Part shown: in pieces, positions 2,178-32,873 of the stretch
Position numbering within the stretch: the first letter of the stretch is position 1
Layout: each line of letters begins with the position of its first letter
Virus record (IMG/VR): IMGVR_UViG_3300038316_000053
Coordinates: 1 to 34,255 of that record
Direction: 5' to 3' (one strand)
Length of the DNA stretch: 34,255 nucleotides
From: a virus
Taxonomy: Duplodnaviria > Caudoviricetes
Notes under the pieces: generated by a model
Told to the model about the DNA's origin: nothing
The model's input: only the letters and a program-made list of their open reading frames with translations
The model's database searches: none
Made by a program: the position numbers and the translations under genes

Positions 2178-2204
2178 ATAATGCTAAAAATTAAGGAGGA
2201 GAGC

Positions 2205-2564
2205 ATGGGAAAATTAAATACTATTCAAAAAAGAGAGAAATTAAATGATGTAATAGCATTAGGTGAAAAGGGAAATGGTGGGGCATATCACAACTATTCA
2301 GTAGAGATTGGGCATGATGGTAATTATCATGTGTCTATACCATTCCAAGATGGAGCAAGAAACTTAGAAGGTAGTAGAAGTGGCGTATTGGATACAGATT
2401 TACTAGAAATAGTTAGACATAGACTTCAAAGTTTCCAAAAAGGCGAATTTGCAACTAGAGAAAATGCAATAGCATTAACACACATAGAAGAAGCGTTGCT
2501 ATGGATGAATAAAAGAGTTGAAGACAGAATTGAAAGGAATGTATTAGGCACTATGAATAAATAA
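2205..2564 (+). CDS. tad1: Tad1-family (Acb2/Tad1) cyclic-nucleotide signal sponge, anti-Thoeris/CBASS
   Basis: Likely start ATG 2205 after AAGGAGG; blocks [14 protein letters not shown], FQxGAR, [16 protein letters not shown], [32 protein letters not shown] closely match C. botulinum prophage Tad1 as I recall it. Confidence 0.88.
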
Positions 2565-2630
2565 CAGGAGGTGATCTAATATCTCCCAGGGATAGGGTTA
2601 CCATCCATGACGATTGAAAGGGGATAGAGA

Positions 2631-4037
2631 ATGACTACTAAAGCAAGACTTGGTGATCAAAATCCTACTCAATCGGTAATTTTAGAATACAAAGAAGAGG
2701 AAAGTCTATATCGAAAAGCGATTGAAATTTACGAAAAATCCAAAAGAACAGCCCAAGAATGGCAAGTTAATTTAACTAAGCATATCTACGCAGTTAATGA
2801 GGATGGACTATGGACCCACACGAAATTTGGCTATTCTCTACCTAGGCGTAATGGCAAAAACGAAGTTGTAGTAATTCGTGAGATGCAAGGATTACAAGAT
2901 GGGGAGCAAATACTCCACACCGCACATAGAACAACTACATCACATACCGCGTGGGAAAGGCTTTGCCGGTTACTAGATCAAGCAGGAATTAAATACGAAT
3001 CACTAAGAGCCACAGGCAGAGAAAGAGTGGAGATTCCAGAAACAGGTGGAAGGGTAGAGTTTAGGACTAGGACGTCTACAGGTGGATTAGGAGAAGGATT
3101 TGATTTACTTGTAATAGATGAGGCGCAAGAATACACTGCAGACCAAGAATCTGCATTAAAATACGTCGTAACGGACTCCAAAAACCCTCAAACAATATTT
3201 TGTGGAACTCCCCCAACTCCTTTAAGTGCCGGGACAGTATTTGTCGCATACAGAAATAGCACATTAAGTGGCAAAGGAGAGAATGCTGGATGGGCAGAGT
3301 GGGGAATAGAAGATGAAGTAAAGGATATTAGAGATATAGAATTATGGTACCGGTGCAACCCGTCACTAGGAACTATCTTTACAGAGCGTTCAATCCGTGA
3401 TGAAATTGGTGAAGATGAACTTGACTTTATGATCCAACGTTTAGGGCTGTGGATTAAGTATAATCAAAAGTCAGCGATCTCCGAAAATGAATGGAAAGAA
3501 TTAAAGGTTAAGGGGAAGCCGGTATTAAAAGGTCCTTTATTCGTTGGAATAAAATATGGGAATGATGGAGCTAACGTGGCCATGAGCATAGCCGTCAGGA
3601 CTCTGTCAAATAAAATATTTATTGAATCCATAGACTGTAAATCTATTAGAAATGGCAATGGGTGGATTGTAGGTTTTTTAAAAAGTGCAGATGTAGCGAA
3701 AGTCGTAGTTGATGGAGCCGCTGGACAAAGCATATTATCAAAGGAAATGAAGGATTTTGGATTAAAAGAACCTACTCTACCAACAGTAAAAGAAATTATT
3801 GTAGCCAATTCACTCTGGGAACAAGGAATTTACAAACAGAGCATTTGCCACAACGACCAACCATCACTAACGCAAGTGGTAACTAACTGCGACAAGAGAA
3901 ACATAGGAAGCAATGGAGGGTTTGGGTATAAATCGCAATTTGAAGATATGGACATTAGCTTAATGGACTCATGTTTGTTGGCCCATTGGGCTTGCAGCGA
4001 AACTAAAACAAAGAAGAAACAAAAAATAAGGTACTAA
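2631..4037 (+). CDS. terL: Terminase large subunit
   Basis: Walker A PRRNGKN, Walker B LLVIDEAQ, coupling motif GTPP, C-terminal nuclease domain. Confidence 0.95.
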   Translation: MTTKARLGDQNPTQSVILEYKEEESLYRKAIEIYEKSKRTAQEWQVNLTKHIYAVNEDGLWTHTKFGYSLPRRNGKNEVVVIREMQGLQDGEQILHTAHRTTTSHTAWERLCRLLDQAGIKYESLRATGRERVEIPETGGRVEFRTRTSTGGLGEGFDLLVIDEAQEYTADQESALKYVVTDSKNPQTIFCGTPPTPLSAGTVFVAYRNSTLSGKGENAGWAEWGIEDEVKDIRDIELWYRCNPSLGTIFTERSIRDEIGEDELDFMIQRLGLWIKYNQKSAISENEWKELKVKGKPVLKGPLFVGIKYGNDGANVAMSIAVRTLSNKIFIESIDCKSIRNGNGWIVGFLKSADVAKVVVDGAAGQSILSKEMKDFGLKEPTLPTVKEIIVANSLWEQGIYKQSICHNDQPSLTQVVTNCDKRNIGSNGGFGYKSQFEDMDISLMDSCLLAHWACSETKTKKKQKIRY

Positions 4038-11481: not shown

Positions 11482-14400
11482 TTGATTTATTTATTCGACA
11501 AGAACGAAGAACTTACTAAAGTTATTCCTTCTGCAGGTATAATTTCTGCAATTCAAAAGGAGGCTCTAAACGGTTTAATAACTTTTGAAGCAGAAATGAA
11601 AGAGTTATATTTTGAAGATATAAAACATGCTGAATTTATTGGTCATAAAGATTACCAAAATAAAAACATATTTTATCTATATAAAATAGATGGTATAAAA
11701 GCAAGTGGGAAAAACATTAATGTCACAGGCCTGCATGTGGTGTTTGATGATTTAAAAAGTTATGGGTACATTAGAGACAGAAGAATTTTTAACGCTACAG
11801 CTACGACGACCCTAGGCGTAATTCTAGAAAATTCAAGGTGGCAAGCAGGAAATGTAGAGGTAAATAGCATAGGGAGCACTAATTTTTACGATATTAGACG
11901 ACTTGATGCACTTAGTAAATTAATTGATGTCTGGAAGTGCGAAGTAGGGTATCGGATGATCTTTGATGGTCAAACAATTGTTGGCAGGTTTATAGATCTA
12001 TACAATCAACGAGGGTCAGACACGGGAAAAAGATTTGTATATGGCCACAATACTTTGGTTGTAGAATTTGAAGAAAGTAGAAATGAAATTTACACTGCTA
12101 TAGTACCACGTGGGAAAGGCGAAGAAAAATATAACGATGAAGGAACTCCAACTGGTGGATATGGTCGAAAAATTACAATTGAGGAAGTGGAATGGTCTAA
12201 AGTAAATGGAAATCCATTAGACAAACCTCTTGGTCAAGATTATGTCGAGATACCAGAAATGACAGCACTGTATGGATATAGTGATGGTAGTCCACGGTTT
12301 AAAATAATTGAATATAACGACATTGAAGAAGTAACAGAATTAATCGAGGTAGCCTATGAGGATGCAATAAATACATCAAGACCAAAAGTCCAATTTTCAA
12401 GCATTGTAGAAAAAATAGGTAATGTTCATCTGGGGGACAACATTAGAATCATAAGGCGTGATTTGGGATTTTATTATTCTGCTAGAATCTTTGAAGTTGA
12501 AAGAAACCTATTAAATAATAAGCAAACAAAAGTAAAATTAGGGGATCACATTGACAGGTCTCAAGCTAAGAAAAATAAAGAACTAAGAAATGAGCTAAAG
12601 AACCTATCTAACTCCTTGTCTGAGGTTGCGGTAAACACAGACAATAAAAATAAAAGTTTGGTTAGGCAAGTACAGGACTATCTTACAAAAGCCTTGTTCA
12701 ATGAGGATGGCTACAACTACGATTTAAGGGCGGGTAATGAACAAGGCTTACCTGCAGGATATTATTCCTTTAATACTCCTATAGACCTAAACCCTCAAAA
12801 AGTAATCTATGTAGGCGCAGGCAAAATGGCTATAGCGAATAGCAAAGATAGCAATGGTGATTGGAATTGGACAACGTGGGCAACTGGTGACGGATTAGTT
12901 GCAAATGCGATTGTAGCAGGGATGTTGATAGGCGGAAAGGTTAAGTGGAATTTAGAAGATGGCACTCTCCTAATCGGCAACAGCCCCGAAGACTATTTTT
13001 TATATTGGGATGGCTCAACTCTAAAAATTAGAGGAGACATCGACATTTCCAACAACGAAACCATTAAAGATATTCAAGAAAATATCGTTTCAATAAAAAT
13101 TGATATAAACGGAGTAACTACAGTAGTAAAAGAAGAAATAGATAAAACCACTAAAACCATAGAAACCTATGGCATAAACATAATATCAAACAAGCCTGAG
13201 AATTGGGAACAAGGGTTTATAGATGAGGACACAGGCGAAGAATGGGATATGGATGACCCGTCTTGGGAGCACTTTACACAATTCGGATATAATTGCCGAA
13301 TAAGGACAAAAGATTATATTGAGATAGACCCAACCAAGTTTTATGTTTTTAGTGAACAGTTTCTATTTAAAGTCTATGCTACAAATATTCAGGTGTACTT
13401 TTATGATGCTGTGAGTAATTACTTAGGGTATCAATGGCATTACAATTTCTTAGACCCTGAAAGGATTCCAGAAGGAACTGCGAAAATTAGAGTAAGCCTA
13501 ATGGAAGATTATCAATACAGCGGATCACCCATAGTATACATAACTCCTGAAGATATAGCCAACTCGCACTTTAAAATTGAACAAGGGACAGAAGCTACAG
13601 ATTGGACGCCATGTATCAACGATGTATCGCTAAATGCTAATTTAGACAATATAAAAATCGGAGACGAGCCAGATAATCCTGATGATGGAACTTTGTGGTT
13701 AGCGGAGTTCATACTAGCTAGTCAATTACTTTGTTTTGATGGTGAGGATTGGATTGCCGTAGGTTGGGGAGAAATTAAAGAAATTCTAAATCGTGTAAGA
13801 GATGTAGAGGTAAAGCAATCTCAAATAATTCAGACAATAGATGGCATAACGCAAGTGGTTGAAAATAAGGCTGAGAAGTCTTATGTAGACCAAACGGCAG
13901 CAGCTGTTACTCTAGAGTTTAAACAATTGTCTGTAGGAGGTGAAAATCTTCTTTTAAAATCAGACGTACCGATTACATCAAACGCTTATCTTCTAAAAAT
14001 TTATGATATTCCTGAACCTATTGCCGATGGTGAAGAGGTGACCCTTCAAATAAAAGGTTACTTAGGTGATGGTAAAACTGGGTTTGGAATCTATAATTCT
14101 GGTGATACAGTGCAGATGGCCCTTCTCAAACCAGAGGATATAAGAAATAAAAACATATACACTAAGACATTTAATTGGGTAGTAGGCGGCTCAGAAAACC
14201 GAGCCATACACGTTTATGTTTTGTACAGTAATGTGACCGTAGACAGTAATATCGAGTGGATAAAGCTAGAACGAGGGAATAGGGCTACAGACAAAAGTCT
14301 ACACAAAAGCGAACTAAAAGGTTCAACCTATAGGTTTGATAAAGATGGGTTTAGCATAGGAGGCACAGGCGGAGATACCGCTCAGCATACAAATAGTCAT

Positions 14401-19487: not shown

Positions 19488-21011
19488 TCATTTCAACAAC
19501 TCTATACTGATCTTCTGCGATTCAGAGTCCCAGGAGATTGATTCTACAATGGTTTTAATATTATATCGACGCATCTCTACATCATCATCTAGGCTTAAAA
19601 AGTTAGTGATTTGGTCGTGGAGCACGTCGATATTTTTACTATCTAGGTTCTCGATAAAATTAGCACGTTCTAATTTCAGTAGTTCATTCTTCAAATTATT
19701 CGTTTCTAGAGTAAGTTGTTCTATTTTTTTGGTAACAAACTCCGATGCATCATTAGACAACACCATTAGCTTATCTATTAGATTATTAATAGCAGCAGTA
19801 TTATCTTTAATCCTCTTTTTTAACTCTTTAATTTTAGAGGATTGATCATTATTAACGTTATTAGCTAGTACCTTTTCTAATTCCTCTTTATCTAATAATC
19901 GCTCTAAAAACTCTATCACTTCACATTCAAGTTTTTCTACTCGTATGGTCCTATTCTTACAAGATGAACTGTCTCGAGCGTTAGCACTGCATTTAAAACG
20001 ATGTGGTCTAGTGCCGTCTTTTCGCACGTTACCAGTATCCACAAACATACCAGATCCACATCTACACTTAACCAATCCTGCAAGCCAACTATTTTTACTA
20101 TCGACAGGTCGCGGTGATTGGTACCGTTCTTTTATTCTCTGATGTGTCCTGATCCAAAGATTAATATCAATTACTGCCTCGTGGGTAGAGACACCGACAA
20201 TCTTATCCCCTACATACCGAACACCATTCTTACGAGGCCTACGATTGTAGGGAAGAAAGCCACAGCCATTAGGCTCACCATAGACCTTATAACCATTTCT
20301 CTTTAACCAGTGGATACTTTCATCACTTGATATCAGATAAGTAGGGTTCTTAATAAGGTCCAGTATAGTATTAGTGGGATAGTTATATCCATTCGCCTTA
20401 AAAAAGTTGTATATTTCCATAGGAAAATAACCATCTGCATACATTTCAAATATTTTCTTAATATTACTTAGTTCTTCATTAGGTACTAGATACGATACTT
20501 GTTTACCATTAACCAGGTCCCTTTCAGATTTATATCCTTTAGGTGGGCTACCACCAGACCAGCGCCCTAATTTAGCCAGTTCGTGCATATTATCCCTTAC
20601 CCTTTGGGAGATATTCATCCGTTCCATTTCAGCAAAAGAAGCAAGTAACAACATCATCATTCGACCTGCGGGAGTACTAGGGTCAAAACCTTCAGTAATA
20701 CTCACTAGCTGTACATTCATCTTATCAAGTTCATCAAAGATATTTACAAAGTCCACAATATTCCGAGCAATTCTATCTATTTTATAAACTGCTACTATAT
20801 CAAACTGTTTAAACTTTACTAACTCCATCATTCGCTGAAAATCAGGACGATTGATATTGCCACCACTAAACCCCTCATCTTCAAAAACTTCAAAGGCGCA
20901 TTTATCTCCGTATTTTCGCTTAAAATACTCCTTACACATCTTAATCTGATTCTTGATACTTTCCCCTGTATCAGTTTCTATAGACTTTCGACTATAAATA
21001 GCAATTTTCAC
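19488..21011 (-). CDS. Large serine recombinase (integrase, SpoIVCA-like)
   Basis: IAIYSRKS catalytic Ser, DEGFSG...RP, DRIAR, recombinase domain, Zn ribbon CRCG...C...C, coiled coil. Confidence 0.95.
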   Translation of the reverse strand: MKIAIYSRKSIETDTGESIKNQIKMCKEYFKRKYGDKCAFEVFEDEGFSGGNINRPDFQRMMELVKFKQFDIVAVYKIDRIARNIVDFVNIFDELDKMNVQLVSITEGFDPSTPAGRMMMLLLASFAEMERMNISQRVRDNMHELAKLGRWSGGSPPKGYKSERDLVNGKQVSYLVPNEELSNIKKIFEMYADGYFPMEIYNFFKANGYNYPTNTILDLIKNPTYLISSDESIHWLKRNGYKVYGEPNGCGFLPYNRRPRKNGVRYVGDKIVGVSTHEAVIDINLWIRTHQRIKERYQSPRPVDSKNSWLAGLVKCRCGSGMFVDTGNVRKDGTRPHRFKCSANARDSSSCKNRTIRVEKLECEVIEFLERLLDKEELEKVLANNVNNDQSSKIKELKKRIKDNTAAINNLIDKLMVLSNDASEFVTKKIEQLTLETNNLKNELLKLERANFIENLDSKNIDVLHDQITNFLSLDDDVEMRRYNIKTIVESISWDSESQKISIELLK

Positions 21012-21029
21012 TTTATTACCACCTATAAA

Positions 21030-22409
21030 TTAATTATTTATTGAATCAGAGAGTTGATTATCTCCAACTAATTCTACAAACTGAGATTCATCAATAATCT
21101 TTATTCCGTATCCTTCATCTATAAGTTCGTAAGCTCTTCTCTCTTTAGTACTCATACCATCTTCACCTACGATAGATTTATTTTGTTCGCCTACAACTAC
21201 ATAATCAGTATTTCTACTAACAGAACTTTTTATATTAGCTCCACAATTTTTAGCAAGTTGCATGGCTCCTCTTCTTGAGATGGCTGGTAAGTCACCAGTG
21301 AACACAATATTCTTATCAAAGAGGGGATTATTTTCATCAATATTAGATACAGTAGTTTGAATATCATTAACACTAACAGAGTCAAACCTGTTACTTTTGC
21401 CAAATCTTCTTTGAGGTTTCAAATCAATAAACTTCTTAGGAGATAAGCTGCTATAAGTAGACAAATATGTAGAGAATGACCGACGTCTTTTTTCTTTAAT
21501 ACAACTTAAAACCAACTGAGCACAAGCCATAGCATCAGATGATGCGTCGTGATGATTATCCAGAACTACACCAAATCTTTCTGTTCGTTCCTTTAGAGAT
21601 TTTCCGACACCTTCACCACTGCAAGCACAAGTAGAGATAGGTATGCTACATAAGTATTCAAATTCAGGAATTGGGATACTATGATCAATTAAGCAAAGTT
21701 TTAAAACGGACATATCAAATACTGCATTGTGAGCTATTATCATACTATTGTTATTAAAATAATGTTTAATTTGCTCCCAAACATCTTTAAAGGATGGCGC
21801 ATTTTTAACGTCATTAGCGATAATCCCGTGGATTTCTATATTTTTTTCTTCAAAACGCATTTCAATCGGTTTAATCAATGTGCTAAATGTTTCTGCGACT
21901 TCATTATTTTTAACGGCAACAAGTCCAATAGAACAAGCACTTCCGTTATAGCTGTTAGCAGTTTCAAAATCTATAGCGACAAAATCAAAAGATAATGAAG
22001 TATCAATATTATTAGAAGAATTATCTTCATTAAAAATAGGTTCTTTATTGTCTACAGGAATTTCTACATTTTCTGTAGAATCTTTAATACTAGAATTATT
22101 TTCAGGAATAATGACATTTTCCTTAGTTATCACATCGTTGTTTTCTTCGATCACATGATTTTTTAGGTTAACATATCGAAAACCAATATAAGCTGGAATA
22201 GATAAAATACCCAAAAGAGCAGCTAATAAATTAGCACTAGAACTCTCTACGTAAGTAACATCAAAAAATACGAAAGAAAATATAAAAATCCCTACAAATA
22301 ATAAACTAGTATATTTACGAGTTCGATTCACAATGAGAGTTGGCTTAATTAATCCAATCAAAAAACCAAATATACTTGAAATTAATAGTCCAAGAAAAAA
22401 GTCTGACAT
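21030..22409 (-). CDS. Membrane-anchored DEDDh 3'-5' exonuclease with C-terminal BRCT domain
   Basis: Three N-terminal TM segments; IDFETAN, HNAVFD, HHDASSDA; FTGDL...GA.....VS..TDYVVVG BRCT. Confidence 0.85.
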   Translation of the reverse strand: MSDFFLGLLISSIFGFLIGLIKPTLIVNRTRKYTSLLFVGIFIFSFVFFDVTYVESSSANLLAALLGILSIPAYIGFRYVNLKNHVIEENNDVITKENVIIPENNSSIKDSTENVEIPVDNKEPIFNEDNSSNNIDTSLSFDFVAIDFETANSYNGSACSIGLVAVKNNEVAETFSTLIKPIEMRFEEKNIEIHGIIANDVKNAPSFKDVWEQIKHYFNNNSMIIAHNAVFDMSVLKLCLIDHSIPIPEFEYLCSIPISTCACSGEGVGKSLKERTERFGVVLDNHHDASSDAMACAQLVLSCIKEKRRRSFSTYLSTYSSLSPKKFIDLKPQRRFGKSNRFDSVSVNDIQTTVSNIDENNPLFDKNIVFTGDLPAISRRGAMQLAKNCGANIKSSVSRNTDYVVVGEQNKSIVGEDGMSTKERRAYELIDEGYGIKIIDESQFVELVGDNQLSDSINN

Positions 22410-27207: not shown

Positions 27208-27969
27208 ATGGCATATAGGGAGAAGAGAATTTATTCAGGAGATTACTTTGAAGCAGAAATATATCAGGTACCTGAGAGCGAGACAAGAAAGCCAAGAAAG
27301 ATAAAAGAGCATGTGTCTAGTCCAACACAGAAAAACTTAAACAATAAAAATTCAATCAAATACTTAATAAGAGTAATAAATACAAATTTCACAGATAATG
27401 ATATTCATCTAACGCTTACATATGATCCTAAAAACTATCCATTATCAGAAGAAGAAGCAAAAAAAGATATGAGGAATTTTATTCGCAGAGTACAAAGGTA
27501 TTGCAAAAAGCATAACCTTTCTTCTCCGAAGTACATATATATTTTTGAATACAAAGACCCAACGAAATATAAAAAAGGGATACGGATGCATCACCATGTA
27601 ATTATAAGTGGACATATTGGAAGAGATGAACTAGAAAAGATATGGAAAAAAGGAAGAGCAAATGCAAAAAGATTACAAGCAGATGAATTTGGCTATGAAG
27701 GGCTAGCGAGATATGTTTCAAAGAACCCAAAAGGAAGTAAAAAATATATTCCAAGTAGGAATTTAGAAAAGCCTACCATAAAAGTAAACGATCATAAATA
27801 TAGCAAACGAAAAGTAGAAAAGCTAGCGAGGACACCAGAGGACCGAAAAGTATTTGAAGAATTGTACAAAGGATATACATTCACACAATGCGAAGTAGCA
27901 TACAACGATTTAACAGGTACTTCTCTATACATAAAAATGAGAACATACAAAAAGGAGGGATTAGATTGA
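27208..27969 (+). CDS. HUH-superfamily rolling-circle replication initiator (Rep)
   Basis: Motif I HLTLTY, motif II MHHHVII, motif III LARYVSK; SD AGGAGAGG. Confidence 0.85.
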   Translation: MAYREKRIYSGDYFEAEIYQVPESETRKPRKIKEHVSSPTQKNLNNKNSIKYLIRVINTNFTDNDIHLTLTYDPKNYPLSEEEAKKDMRNFIRRVQRYCKKHNLSSPKYIYIFEYKDPTKYKKGIRMHHHVIISGHIGRDELEKIWKKGRANAKRLQADEFGYEGLARYVSKNPKGSKKYIPSRNLEKPTIKVNDHKYSKRKVEKLARTPEDRKVFEELYKGYTFTQCEVAYNDLTGTSLYIKMRTYKKEGLD

Positions 27970-29671: not shown

Positions 29672-29910
29672 TGATAAATGTAGACAAGTACGACAACATG
29701 GCCAAAGACGAAAGAGAAACAAAAGTATATAAAGACTACGAAGTAGGCGAAAAAGTAAAGGTGGTAAAAGCAAGAGACGCAAATGGAAAGAAGAAACTAA
29801 CGGCACGAGCAACAATAGAAGAAGTCTATGAAGAGTTTGCTCTTTGCTCTTTTAAAGATAAACCGTACAAAGAGTGTTTTAGATATGAGGATATAGAGGT
29901 GATATTATGA
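29671..29910 (+). CDS. Hypothetical protein (KOW/Veg-like beta barrel?)
   Basis: TAATG coupling to recU; EVGEKVKV...YKECF.Y.D. Confidence 0.55.
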   Translation: MINVDKYDNMAKDERETKVYKDYEVGEKVKVVKARDANGKKKLTARATIEEVYEEFALCSFKDKPYKECFRYEDIEVIL

Positions 29911-30119
29911 AGATGAAAGCAGAACAAATTAAAAATCTAATAGAAGGGCGCAAAATTAGAGCGGCAAACTGCAGAGAACAATGGAAATTCTATAAAGAGA
30001 GAAAGAACAGTACTCTTTCATTCACATACAAGGAAAGGACATTAGAAGAAGAAACGATAATTGAGGGGCTAGAATTATTGTTAAAAAAGGAGGATTCACA
30101 TAGAGAGTTAAATTATTGA
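29907..30119 (+). CDS. Hypothetical protein
   Basis: SD GAGGTG, ATGA overlap. Confidence 0.55.
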   Translation: MKMKAEQIKNLIEGRKIRAANCREQWKFYKERKNSTLSFTYKERTLEEETIIEGLELLLKKEDSHRELNY

Positions 30120-30162
30120 TTCGCAATCTGAAGAAAATGCGAAGCAAGAAAGGGGTAGGACA

Positions 30163-30417
30163 ATGAACAAGATAGCTTTAGGAAAATCAATTGAAATATT
30201 GATGGAAATACAGAGTGACTGGGAAGATGGGGTTGAGTATGAGTCCTTCAACATAGCTATAAACTCAGTCGAGAAACAAATACCAAGAAAACCACTTAGA
30301 GAATTTAATGGAATACAAAACCTGAAAATGTGCTTATGTGGTGGCGAAATATACAGCTATCCTTCATCTTTTAATTATTGCCCTTATTGTGGGCAGAAGA
30401 TAGATAAGGAAGATTAG
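30163..30417 (+). CDS. Zn-ribbon phage protein
   Basis: EKQIPRKP...CLCG...YCPYCGQKI. Confidence 0.75.
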   Translation: MNKIALGKSIEILMEIQSDWEDGVEYESFNIAINSVEKQIPRKPLREFNGIQNLKMCLCGGEIYSYPSSFNYCPYCGQKIDKED

Positions 30418-30468
30418 TCGCATAACAAATATATTACACACTTTAAATATAATGCAAAGGAGATAAAG

Positions 30469-30801
30469 ATGAATATAATACTAGGACATTTGGTTGGAGA
30501 TTATTTATTTCAAAGCGATTGGATGGCGTTAAATAAGAAATCGAAAGGTTTTAAAGGATTATTAGCATGTGTTATTCACTGTTTGATATGGACGATATCA
30601 ATGATGATATTTACTAATAATTATAATGTTTTGTTAGCATTAACATTATTTATATCACATTTTATTTTAGATAGGACAAAGCTTGTAGTATGGTATTTGA
30701 ACACTCTTAAAATAATGCCAAACCCTTCTATGTGGAAGGTAATAATTGTAGACAATACGTTGCATTTACTTATGGTTTATGGGCTATTGAAAATATTCTA
30801 A
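30469..30801 (+). CDS. DUF3307-like membrane protein
   Basis: HLVGDYLFQSDWMA.NK, H, SHFILD, DNTLH motifs. Confidence 0.8.
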   Translation: MNIILGHLVGDYLFQSDWMALNKKSKGFKGLLACVIHCLIWTISMMIFTNNYNVLLALTLFISHFILDRTKLVVWYLNTLKIMPNPSMWKVIIVDNTLHLLMVYGLLKIF

Positions 30802-30843
30802 GTCACATTTCAAATAAAATACGAAATAAAAGGAGAATAGCAA

Positions 30844-31026
30844 ATGAACGAAAAAATGAAAAGCTTTGAAGAAGCTGTAAAACCTATTCAGAAGTGGTTT
30901 AGGGAGAATTGTTGTCCTCATGATAGGGTTGTAATTGATTGGGATATGGCACGACTACTTGAGGGTGTGATGGGCATTACGTCAGGATGGATAGAGATAG
31001 AAAAACTCAACGAGTCGAATGAATAG
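30844..31026 (+). CDS. Hypothetical protein
   Basis: SD AAGGAG; FEEAVKP..KW..EN..PH motif. Confidence 0.7.
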   Translation: MNEKMKSFEEAVKPIQKWFRENCCPHDRVVIDWDMARLLEGVMGITSGWIEIEKLNESNE

Positions 31027-31065
31027 TACACGTTTCAAGTGAATTGCGAAATAGGAGGATTTAAA

Positions 31066-31236
31066 ATTAAAGACATATTAAAACAGGCTAACGATATAGT
31101 GAACGATTTTGATGAGTTTCTAGACATCTCCGAAATTATCGATGAAAGAACAAAAAAGGATAACGGCAAAAGATACACAATGAATGAAATTGCTGAAAAG
31201 TATAATTTGAAATTTAATAAAAATACAGAAAACTAG
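31066..31236 (+). CDS. Small hypothetical protein, possible ATT start or decayed start codon
   Basis: SD AGGAGG 31053-58 lies 7 nt before in-frame ATT; the track's GTG 31039 lies inside the repeat. Confidence 0.4.
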   Translation: MKDILKQANDIVNDFDEFLDISEIIDERTKKDNGKRYTMNEIAEKYNLKFNKNTEN

Positions 31237-31263
31237 AGGATTACTCTAAAAGGGAGAATATAA

Positions 31264-31650
31264 ATGAAGAAAATAATAGTAATGATATTAATTGTAGCTT
31301 CGTTAGCTATTGGATGTCAAAGAGAATCAGATAAAGTATCTTATAATTTATCATTAGAAGCGGATAATTTCAACATTGTAAGACAGCTGACAGTTATAAA
31401 TAGCAGAAGCGACGATATCCTGTTTCAAATGACAGGGAAGATGTCAATTAATACCGATTCATCGGATGGTCAATTAGAAGTTGTATCTGAAGATGAGAAT
31501 GGAGCTTATCATAAGCATTTCATCTATCTTAACGAATGGACAACTTATGTGGTCGAAGATCTTGGCGGTTCAGAGGTAGATAAGTATAAATATACTCTTA
31601 ACTACAATCCTAAGATGTGGATACCTGTTGATGTTGAGACTATAGATTGA
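31264..31650 (+). CDS. Phage lipoprotein
   Basis: MKK + hydrophobic stretch + lipobox LAIG-C; VSYNLS.EADNFN..R.LTVIN. Confidence 0.85.
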   Translation: MKKIIVMILIVASLAIGCQRESDKVSYNLSLEADNFNIVRQLTVINSRSDDILFQMTGKMSINTDSSDGQLEVVSEDENGAYHKHFIYLNEWTTYVVEDLGGSEVDKYKYTLNYNPKMWIPVDVETID

Positions 31651-31702
31651 TACATAATTCCAAGTATATTGTACACTGTAAATTAGAGGGGGTTAAGGAT
31701 AA

Positions 31703-32008
31703 GTGAGTGACATTAAAAGAGGTCAAAAGGTATGGGTGTCATTAAAAAATAAAATAAAAGAAACTACAGTAAAATCAATAGGACCTAAATATATAACCTT
31801 AGAAAATATTAGTATATTGTTTGACAGAAGGACTTTGACAAAAGCAGGTAGTTCCAATTCTAAATATTTTATCATTACAGATATAGAAAATATAGAAAAA
31901 TATGTAGAATACTACAAACGATTAATTGATAAAATCAAAAATGTTAAATGGGAAAATGTAAACAAAGAAGATTTAGAGAGAATTGCTGATATTTTAAGAA
32001 AATACTAA
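31703..32008 (+). CDS. Hypothetical beta-barrel protein
   Basis: IKRGQKVW...TVKSIG.KYITL. Confidence 0.65.
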   Translation: MSDIKRGQKVWVSLKNKIKETTVKSIGPKYITLENISILFDRRTLTKAGSSNSKYFIITDIENIEKYVEYYKRLIDKIKNVKWENVNKEDLERIADILRKY

Positions 32009-32074
32009 TTTGCAACTTAAGTAAGCTGTACAGCTTGAAGATTATGCTAATAAAAGAAGAGGCGAGGAAGTAAA

Positions 32075-32218
32075 ATGAATAATCATTACAAAGGTCAAGA
32101 AGGAGCATTGAAATTCATTGTCGATATTGCAGACGGCTATGATGGCTGTAATACAGTAGATAGTTTAAATGAACTCAGTCGTGAGCAGTTTACGATTATA
32201 TGCATAAAGGAGGAATAA
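32075..32218 (+). CDS. Small hypothetical protein, possibly truncated (not in ORF track)
   Basis: 47 aa: DIADGYDGCNTVDSL...; runs through a weak repeat copy. Confidence 0.4.
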   Translation: MNNHYKGQEGALKFIVDIADGYDGCNTVDSLNELSREQFTIICIKEE

Positions 32219-32220
32219 AA

Positions 32221-32289
32221 ATGGAATATATAGTAGCGGCTTTAATAATTTTATTGGTAGCATTTACCATAGTACTGATAAAGTTTTGA
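32221..32289 (+). CDS. 22-aa single-TM peptide (not in ORF track)
   Basis: SD AAGGAGG; MEYIVAALIILLVAFTIVLIKF. Confidence 0.5.
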   Translation: MEYIVAALIILLVAFTIVLIKF

Positions 32290-32316
32290 GCGGGAAATCC
32301 AAATAAGGGGCGAACT

Positions 32317-32484
32317 ATGGAAACTAAGAAAGTATTAAAATTATTGAGAAAATATGAAGAGTGCCCTAAATGTGGAAGTACTTACATAGGGAATGGACAA
32401 GGAACATTAATCATCGAAACAGATTATTTTATTAGAGGGTGCAAATGTGGCTTTGAAATAAAGATAAATGCAGAGGAGGTATAA
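32317..32484 (+). CDS. DUF3797-like Zn-ribbon protein (not in ORF track)
   Basis: KYEECPKCGS..IGNGQGTL.I....F.R.CKCG. Confidence 0.75.
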   Translation: METKKVLKLLRKYEECPKCGSTYIGNGQGTLIIETDYFIRGCKCGFEIKINAEEV

Positions 32485-32486
32485 AG

Positions 32487-32873
32487 ATGGATTTAGGAGC
32501 ATGCAGGCATTGCGGAGCGGTTATTATTGGCCAATACACGGACGAAATGACAGAAGACGAGAAAAATGAAATGGCTACACGAATGTGCAATTGTGCAAAT
32601 GCGGAATTGGAGCGGTACAAGCGGGACGAAAAGGCAATGACAAAAGAAAGAATAAGGGAGCTATTAATAGAAAAATCAGAAGAGATAGGATTCAAAAACA
32701 AAATAGAAGACACAGAAGTGCATTTGCTATTAGATATGATTGTGGACCTAGCATCTGATGGAAAGATAAATGGAATAAACATGGTTTTAGAGGACAGCAC
32801 AAGATTTAAAATCACCGAAAAAGAAGGAAAAATCAACGTAGAGCGAGTGCAAAATATAAAATACAAACTTTAA
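32487..32873 (+). CDS. Conserved phage protein with Cys motif
   Basis: GACRHCG...ATRMCNC..A; SD GGAGG. Confidence 0.75.
   Translation: MDLGACRHCGAVIIGQYTDEMTEDEKNEMATRMCNCANAELERYKRDEKAMTKERIRELLIEKSEEIGFKNKIEDTEVHLLLDMIVDLASDGKINGINMVLEDSTRFKITEKEGKINVERVQNIKYKL

Follow-up and report, generated by a model that had tools for sequence, protein, structure and literature searches.

Positions 30118 to 32316 of virus record IMGVR_UViG_3300038316_000053 (the window, the whole 34,255-nucleotide stretch analysed, is a 99% complete record of a temperate tailed phage) hold an array of small genes, located between the genes for RecU and the late regulator, in which almost every gene boundary carries a related 28-mer. 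That this is a site-specific gene-cassette exchange region is well supported by the evidence assembled below. We read the 28-mers as gene-exchange points of clostridial phages, likely recognised as double-stranded DNA targets by a tyrosine recombinase that the phage does not encode, most likely a Xer-like protein of the host or a close relative of one, and we give this reading as a whole a probability of about 0.68.

The sites in the window are real. Every one of the eight 28-mers listed in the original prediction, which had been made from the sequence of the window alone, is present with its 6-bp core (Table 1), and the arms are loosely inverted as it had said, 3 to 8 of 11 bases being complementary. 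In a leave-one-out profile scored on the plus strand of the window against 34,219 other positions, seven of the eight stand far above chance, outscored by between 0 positions (30118, 30800) and 69 (31650), whereas the eighth, 32025 (p ~0.07), is no better than chance. A ninth copy, absent from the earlier list, lies at 30433, offset by 18 bp from 30415, the same spacing as from 32007 to 32025. The sites were also ranked with a family profile built on 160 sites located in other genomes, scored on 68,452 window positions on both strands; the window copies had been taken out of this profile, which is still not fully independent because it was seeded from the window's own sites. Five of the copies occupy ranks 1, 2, 3, 5 and 6. 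Site 31650 reaches rank 41 only after a one-base register shift (3,737 as listed), and the low ranks of 32007, 32025 and 32289 make these three atypical of the family. The match at rank 4 (15 bits), at 3930 within the terminase gene and off any boundary, looks like a chance occurrence.

The same motif recurs at gene ends in dozens of other clostridial prophages. The family sample consists of 57 loci, 19 others having been removed before counting (15 lone matches away from boundaries, three duplicates, and L093, also a duplicate); L113 and L158, which look identical, were both kept. Above 12 bits these loci contain 204 matches on the coding strand versus 5 on the opposite strand, in agreement with the single constant orientation originally proposed, and 167 of the 204 lie at gene ends, a share that is partly circular because the profile was trained on boundary matches. 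The consensus of 165 sites, written as a 30-mer along which site positions are numbered throughout, is TAATTCACAATT CAAATA TATTGTGAAGGA, with a conserved run at positions 9-16; four cores (CAAATA, TGAAAT, CAAAAA and CAAAGA) account for 127 of the 165, and the sites overlap ribosome sites as well as stop codons (at positions 1-3 in 88 of 230 sites). A strict pattern retrieved two loci and a looser one 30, and four of 11 RecU-anchored loci (L005-L008) have coding-strand sites at gene ends. In GTDB genomes the strict pattern has seven matches, each in a record titled Clostridium; the site pattern occurs in 10 of 71 Clostridiaceae genomes (control, 2) and is rare in the class as a whole (5 of 301 Clostridia genomes). 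A pattern scan of metagenomes, judged to have returned mostly chance matches, gave 27 loci of which just one had two profile matches. Copies on chromosomes, outside recognisable prophages, flank accessory genes (L160, L161, L162, L164, L167, L169 and L292). In Clostridium lentum a GNAT gene is flanked by them, and in C. culturomicium they flank a histidine-phosphatase block of three genes that is present twice, 27 kb apart, with different neighbours.

Matches between relatives often break off at these sites and, within them, at the core. All-against-all BLAST of the 57 loci produced 577 unique internal match ends, with sites making up 1.0% of the DNA: 89 of 314 left ends and 36 of 263 right ends lie in sites, 27 of the latter at positions 16-19, and no right end was found in the 15 bases that follow a site. 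A breakpoint is carried by 70 of 125 gene ends with a site versus 56 of 186 without (p 7e-6). When flanks were clustered into 19 groups with a common upstream gene and 19 with a common downstream gene, position 12 tracked the upstream gene (0.95 vs 0.54), position 19 the downstream gene (0.86 vs 0.57) and positions 13-14 both flanks (0.95-0.98; chance 0.52-0.55). Identity between upstream partners extends to position 16-18 and that between downstream partners begins at 13; the common part is therefore the 6-bp core. The predicted 11-6-11 geometry, the placing of relatives' breakpoints within the core and the exchange of cassettes are thus supported together by the match ends, the flank-group identities and the contig matches described below. 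Cores starting with CA and with TG behave as two classes, 18 of 20 groups per side holding only one, and TG-class pairs retain the entire core whichever flank is shared, positions 17-18 included (0.89-0.94; chance 0.55; 6 + 6 groups). Unique cassettes across 31 arrays are of the types TG-CA (44), CA-TG (6) and CA-CA (63), TG joints usually coming first. The same gene is found at different ranks, one tandem duplication and one repeat were seen, and of 603 gene pairs 6 are found in either order, five of them inside arrays.

Inversion of the RecV type, as described in the available part of PMC5903667, was rejected for these sites, which are direct, with cargo that as a rule is not inverted. Two other candidates were set aside on the core data: a 2-bp crossover at the symmetry centre, as in the att or res sites of serine recombinases and hence by the phage's own serine integrase, given that both flanks share positions 13-14 and, for TG-class sites, also 17-18; and a model of fixed addresses, given that the four cores named above serve most sites and cassettes change rank. 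Tyrosine recombinases make staggered cuts at both edges of a core, and the inheritance of core bases fits such cuts with one mismatch tolerated.

Phage mosaicism is usually ascribed to homologous or illegitimate recombination, and the sites might be conserved boundary sequences that serve as short homology, with no site-specific enzyme involved. The conserved run at positions 9-16, the breakpoints at gene ends without sites and the failure to find an enzyme in cis are what this would lead one to expect. However, similarity between partners does not exceed the chance level in the far arm or at position 12 or 19-20; only the 6-bp core is common to them, which weakens the proposal because 6 bp is too short for homology-driven exchange. 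The core-centred symmetry of two arms and the likeness to recombinase-adjacent sites would also go unexplained, and we consider short homology improbable as the basis of the array. The coding-strand bias and the overlap with stop codons and ribosome sites would equally suit repressor operators, or RNA-processing or translational signals at gene junctions, but neither base-precise breakpoints nor core classes are predicted by such signals. Promoters and terminators are in no excess in window 29900-32500 (9 found, 14.1 expected; 0 terminators), Rfam has no match to the sites, and there is no arm-to-arm covariation (p 0.20 and 0.37), so that this explanation is very improbable. Complementarity between arms equals that of shuffled pairs (4.80 vs 4.74 for sites, n=230; 4.81 vs 4.78 for circle junctions, n=124) and, with covariation lacking, a hairpin of the attC type is not indicated.

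For the window itself, cassettes were compared with contigs of four public runs (X2, X3, X5 and X7) out of 14, with 25 of 44 pieces listed. Another of the 14, X1, may be the run from which the window comes. At least six internal match ends from three contigs (X2, X5) fall in or directly at window sites. The X5 contig shares 31053-31670 with two differences, the site halves differing on both sides, and beyond 31670 continues in another consensus-like right arm. As judged from this contig, the two genes of cassette 4 move as one unit, contrary to the original view that cassettes are single genes throughout; the boundary at 31236-31264 truly has no site, as had been noted, because it is internal to this cassette. 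At site 30415, likely decayed, the window has A at a near-invariant T of the left arm (30424), and X2 keeps T. Site pairs that are back-to-back or overlapping with no gene between, resembling 30415/30433, are also seen at L113:5555-5614 and L116:4587-4633 (offsets 30 and 17); such pairs are likely scars of imprecise exchange. Ahead of the peptide gene, the 11 letters preceding 32208 in X3 form a consensus right arm, and the family profile rises nowhere above -6 across 32180..32207, the site proposed there going undetected by it. No breakpoint falls at 32007..32052 among the contig matches listed from the four runs. The 47-aa open reading frame (ORF) that follows is possibly a truncated cassette gene. 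A 108-bp X3 contig of depth 2.7 joins 31657 back to 31034, one site's left arm onto the other's core; it could stem from a circle, from a tandem copy or from a chimera, and is only a hint.

Of the cargo assignments, DUF3307 is confirmed; the Zn ribbon is weak, the lipoprotein is identified as Phage_VG64, and ProQ-C-like and DUF3797 genes come in addition. Homologues of the DUF3307 protein (62-67%) in two other viruses are without flanking sites. The PHROG label "recombination directionality factor" for the lipoprotein was set aside, the gene being cargo with homologues mostly without sites. Searches for close relatives of the phage gave a single weak match for the 101-aa gene, none for the 84-aa gene in metagenomes and, for the 128-aa gene, none in one search and two proteins in another.

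In the mechanism that we propose, a single recombinase would bind both arms and cut at both edges of the 6-bp core. Between matching cores a cassette would loop out or in; alternatively, two co-resident phage genomes would cross over at a TG joint and then at a CA joint, and so trade the intervening block. Every exchange would leave intact genes, because the stop codon lies within the left arm and the ribosome site beyond the right arm, and the exchanged genes would be read from the phage's upstream promoter.

The enzyme appears to act in trans. No tyrosine recombinase was found in 52 ORFs with PHROGs or 42 with Pfam, of 132 listed, and tblastn with two tyrosine recombinase queries gave zero matches across the whole window, which encodes a serine integrase instead (19488-21011, minus strand); the absence noted in the original prediction thus stands. 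Among complete site-bearing virus records, three of eight likewise have no PF00589 gene. Canonical host XerC/XerD, which had been suggested as the driver, is doubtful. Both cassette arms follow one consensus, and inner arm bases depart from the Clostridia dif rows in the part of PMC3025954 available to us. The canonical Firmicutes dif pattern shows no excess above control in five Clostridium genomes, in line with that part of the survey, which reports no dif for C. perfringens and C. beijerinckii and, for C. botulinum, predictions 137-175 degrees away from the skew shift.

A better candidate is a clostridial Xer-like protein that scores below the XerC, XerD and XerS cut-offs. Its gene, which lies beside lexA in those loci where the neighbourhood was inspected, occurs in 41 of 41 Clostridiaceae genomes and in 30 of 46 genomes of a class-wide sample. 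An 11-6-11 palindrome, typically ACTTCGCTAAA TGTATA TTTAGCGAAGT, lies 45-155 bp upstream of the gene in 27 of 32 loci; in the class-wide sample, variants such as ATTTCGCAAAA and ATTATACAAAA lie upstream in 18 of 31 loci and downstream in 0 of 31. The arm columns of host and cassette sites correlate (0.50 vs 0.10, p 0.007; class-wide, 0.56 vs 0.15, p 0.013). That the gene is universal in Clostridiaceae and chromosomal speaks for a housekeeping function, although a place at the terminus has only partial support, the gene being at 45-59% of apparent genome size in 7 of 14 first-contig rows. From its form and place, the palindrome is a candidate single-recombinase dif of clostridia; full-text searches, mostly outside subscription journals, did not find it described. 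The enzyme of the cassettes is likely of the Xer-like family as far as the site sequences indicate, either the host protein working on weakened sites or an unfound relative. Its assignment to the host Xer-like family, which we hold at slightly under even odds, is the weakest step of the explanation. Host-type palindromes also flank three places on a 5-kb contig (L294, G273:C76), and one lies at a gene boundary between the terminase and portal genes of a prophage (L295:18383); these are possible clostridial counterparts of plasmid dif (pdif) modules. A weak match to the host palindrome in a tail gene of the window (13624-13651; score 2.0, real sites 22-47, next best -11) may be due to chance.

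The same sites and chemistry could instead be served by a phage or prophage tyrosine recombinase in trans (a 181-aa or 331-aa protein, or an unfound mobile paralogue) or by a host XerD-like protein encoded beside spoIIM. Clostridium genomes have 4-7 PF00589 genes each, and a different enzyme would account for the fixed difference at arm position 10 discussed below. The small 181-aa recombinase, behind the late regulator, is matched in 29 of 31 anchor loci, but its subfamilies of 28-99% identity share cassettes, it is frequent in phages of Streptococcus and Bacillus (156 of 206 records), and 9 of 12 genes examined have their own, different 11-6-11 motif 109-123 bp downstream. This motif, seen in L125-L149, is likely the resolution site of the widespread small recombinase. 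The 331-aa gene is directly behind the array in 9 of 31 loci but missing from most arrays. Next to 11 other recombinase genes and the phage ones checked, no cassette-type site scores above 10 bits, and overall we regard an enzyme from this set as unlikely.

Several observations weigh against a host Xer-like recombinase acting on these sites, or against the generality of the exchange. At arm position 10, 164 of 165 cassette left arms have T, whereas the host arms all have A (27 of 27 and 36 of 36), and host-profile scores have a median of -38 for cassette sites versus 40 for host sites; the host enzyme may therefore not act on cassette sites. Position 17 of the CA class tracks neither flank (0.42 and 0.36; chance 0.35) and is a tolerated mismatch, at odds with a strict requirement for six matching bases. 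The majority of match ends (452 of 577) fall outside called sites, so other exchange routes exist. The breakpoint statistics derive largely from a single group of related prophages and not from the window phage's lineage, and to this are added the partial circularity of the gene-end share and the three window sites atypical of the family. Another X2 match begins at 32471 without a site, and a diverged piece stops at 30092. Homologues of the window cargo in distant viruses are mostly without sites (13 site matches in 80 loci).

The closest known arrangement is that of the dif modules of Acinetobacter Rep_3/OrfX plasmids, in which, according to the part of PMC13141974 consulted, accessory genes lie between 11-6-11 sites that resemble the host chromosomal site, no recombinase is encoded in cis, modules shuffle, and plasmids form cointegrates via matching spacers. 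The clostridial sites share with pdif modules the 11-6-11 form with exchange at the 6-bp spacer, but occur in Gram-positive clostridia, on phages as well as chromosomes, and all keep one orientation without the alternation of C/D and D/C sites; their arms share one consensus in place of distinct XerC and XerD arms, with two core classes, and they are fused to a stop codon and a ribosome site, the inner arm departing from the host site. The array had been called integron-like, a description that suits its layout and not its machinery, there being no integrase, no attI and no hairpin signal of the attC type. Integrons and clusters of attC sites lacking integron-integrases (CALINs), like the clostridial arrays, string together promoterless cassettes that mostly hold one gene, face the same way and become reordered and duplicated. 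Unlike integrons, the clostridial arrays have neither integron integrase (compare PMC8138268) nor attI (tyrosine recombinases neighbouring relatives' arrays score below the integron cut-off), and their sites are of 28 bp, without hairpin covariation and with both strands apparently exchanged.

With XerS/difSL, XerH/difH and XerA, as covered in the parts of PMC1914069 and PMC5357621 consulted, the host candidate has in common one recombinase gene with an adjoining site, although the clostridial host site is a near-perfect 11-6-11 palindrome with a predicted function; the term "Clostridi" has 0 occurrences in the accessible portion of PMC5357621. Integrative mobile elements exploiting Xer (IMEX), such as the phages CTX, VGJ and TLC, use a host recombinase and degenerate sites with core mismatches tolerated (same portion of PMC5357621), which is what we propose for the clostridial phages. 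In contrast to IMEX, whose single site takes the whole element into dif, the clostridial phage has many internal sites exchanging single genes and integrates by serine integrase.

A wider possibility, which we hold tentatively and at somewhat less than even odds, is that clostridia have a single-enzyme Xer/dif system with a symmetric site, variants of which have been made into an integrase-free cassette library of phages and chromosomes. If true, this would be a Gram-positive counterpart of integrons, and accessory regions of temperate phages would be built gene by gene via circular intermediates. The joints are base-precise, with a tyrosine-recombinase signature, in a host group for which the literature searches gave no integron-like system. 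Full-text searches did not find the cassette sites described, most subscription journals and preprint supplements being outside their coverage and absence from print unproven. Exchange of this kind would account for the hypervariable small-gene region in many clostridial phages, would allow cassettes to be annotated and points to a route of gene flow between phage and chromosome. The host palindrome also supplies a candidate chromosome-dimer site for clostridia, where the published survey failed or gave doubtful sites.

Table 1. Parts of the window array, with the number of positions outscoring each site in the leave-one-out profile (LOO, of 34,219), its family-profile rank (of 68,452), and the loci of host-chromosome palindromes.
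Feature	Position	Strand	LOO	Family rank	Evidence
Site, TG class, first joint of array	30118..30145, core 30129-30134	+	0	3	16.5-kb X2 contig matches from 30129 (first core base)
Cassette 1 gene, 84 aa, weak Zn ribbon (E 0.003)	30163..30417	+			Common to X2 as 30129-30454
Site, CA class, likely decayed	30415..30442, core 30426-30431	+	1	6
Overlapping additional site, TA	30433..30460, core 30444-30449	+		2	X2 match stops at 30454, 5 bases beyond core
Cassette 2 gene, DUF3307 membrane protein	30469..30801	+			E 1e-12
Site, CA class, window's best family match	30800..30827, core 30811-30816	+	0	1
Cassette 3 gene, 60 aa, no function assigned	30844..31026	+			Diverged X7 copy matches within 30829-31014
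Site, CA class	31025..31052, core 31036-31041	+	1	5	X5 match from 31053 behind different site copy
Cassette 4, 65-aa ORF and Phage_VG64 lipoprotein (31264-31650)	31039..31650	+			X5 contig
Site, CA class, left arm one base off family register	31650..31677, core 31661-31666	+	69	41 (shifted); 3,737 (as listed)	Profile scoring; X5 match stops at 31670
Cassette 5 gene, 101 aa, ProQ-C-terminal-like	31703..32008	+			Family search
Two overlapping atypical sites, 32007 (core 32018-32023) and 32025 (core 32036-32041, marginal)	32007..32052	+	1 (32007); 2,301 (32025)	1,082 (32007); 373 (32025)
47-aa ORF	32075..32218	+			ORF list; no family in PHROGs/Pfam scans
Putative decayed site ahead of peptide gene	32180..32207	+			X2, X3 matches begin at 32207, 32208
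22-aa hydrophobic peptide gene, own cassette	32221..32289	+			X2 shares 32207-32298, both ends internal to contig
Last site, atypical arms	32289..32316, core 32300-32305	+	29	425	X2 match stops at 32298, two bases ahead of core
DUF3797 gene after last site	32317..32484	+			E 1.6e-16
Host-chromosome palindrome loci	L178-L180, L196-L225, L287-L291, L298-L327

The remainder of the phage gene set comprises portal, terminase, head, tail, lysis, serine integrase, repressor, Rep, RecU, late regulator and HNH genes, and GenBank phages resemble the window at the Rep, lipoprotein and HNH genes only. The closest named relative of the integrase is from Alkalibaculum (74%), with Clostridium next; in the lysogeny module its gene is adjoined by that of a DEDDh exonuclease with a BRCT domain (21030-22409, minus strand). 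The Rep protein is a Rep_ORF2-G2P initiator of rolling-circle type (27208-27969), here in a tailed phage and with kin in the Clostridium phages phiS63 and phiSM101. The terminase genes (2181-4037) are unusually placed, downstream of those for portal and minor head proteins.

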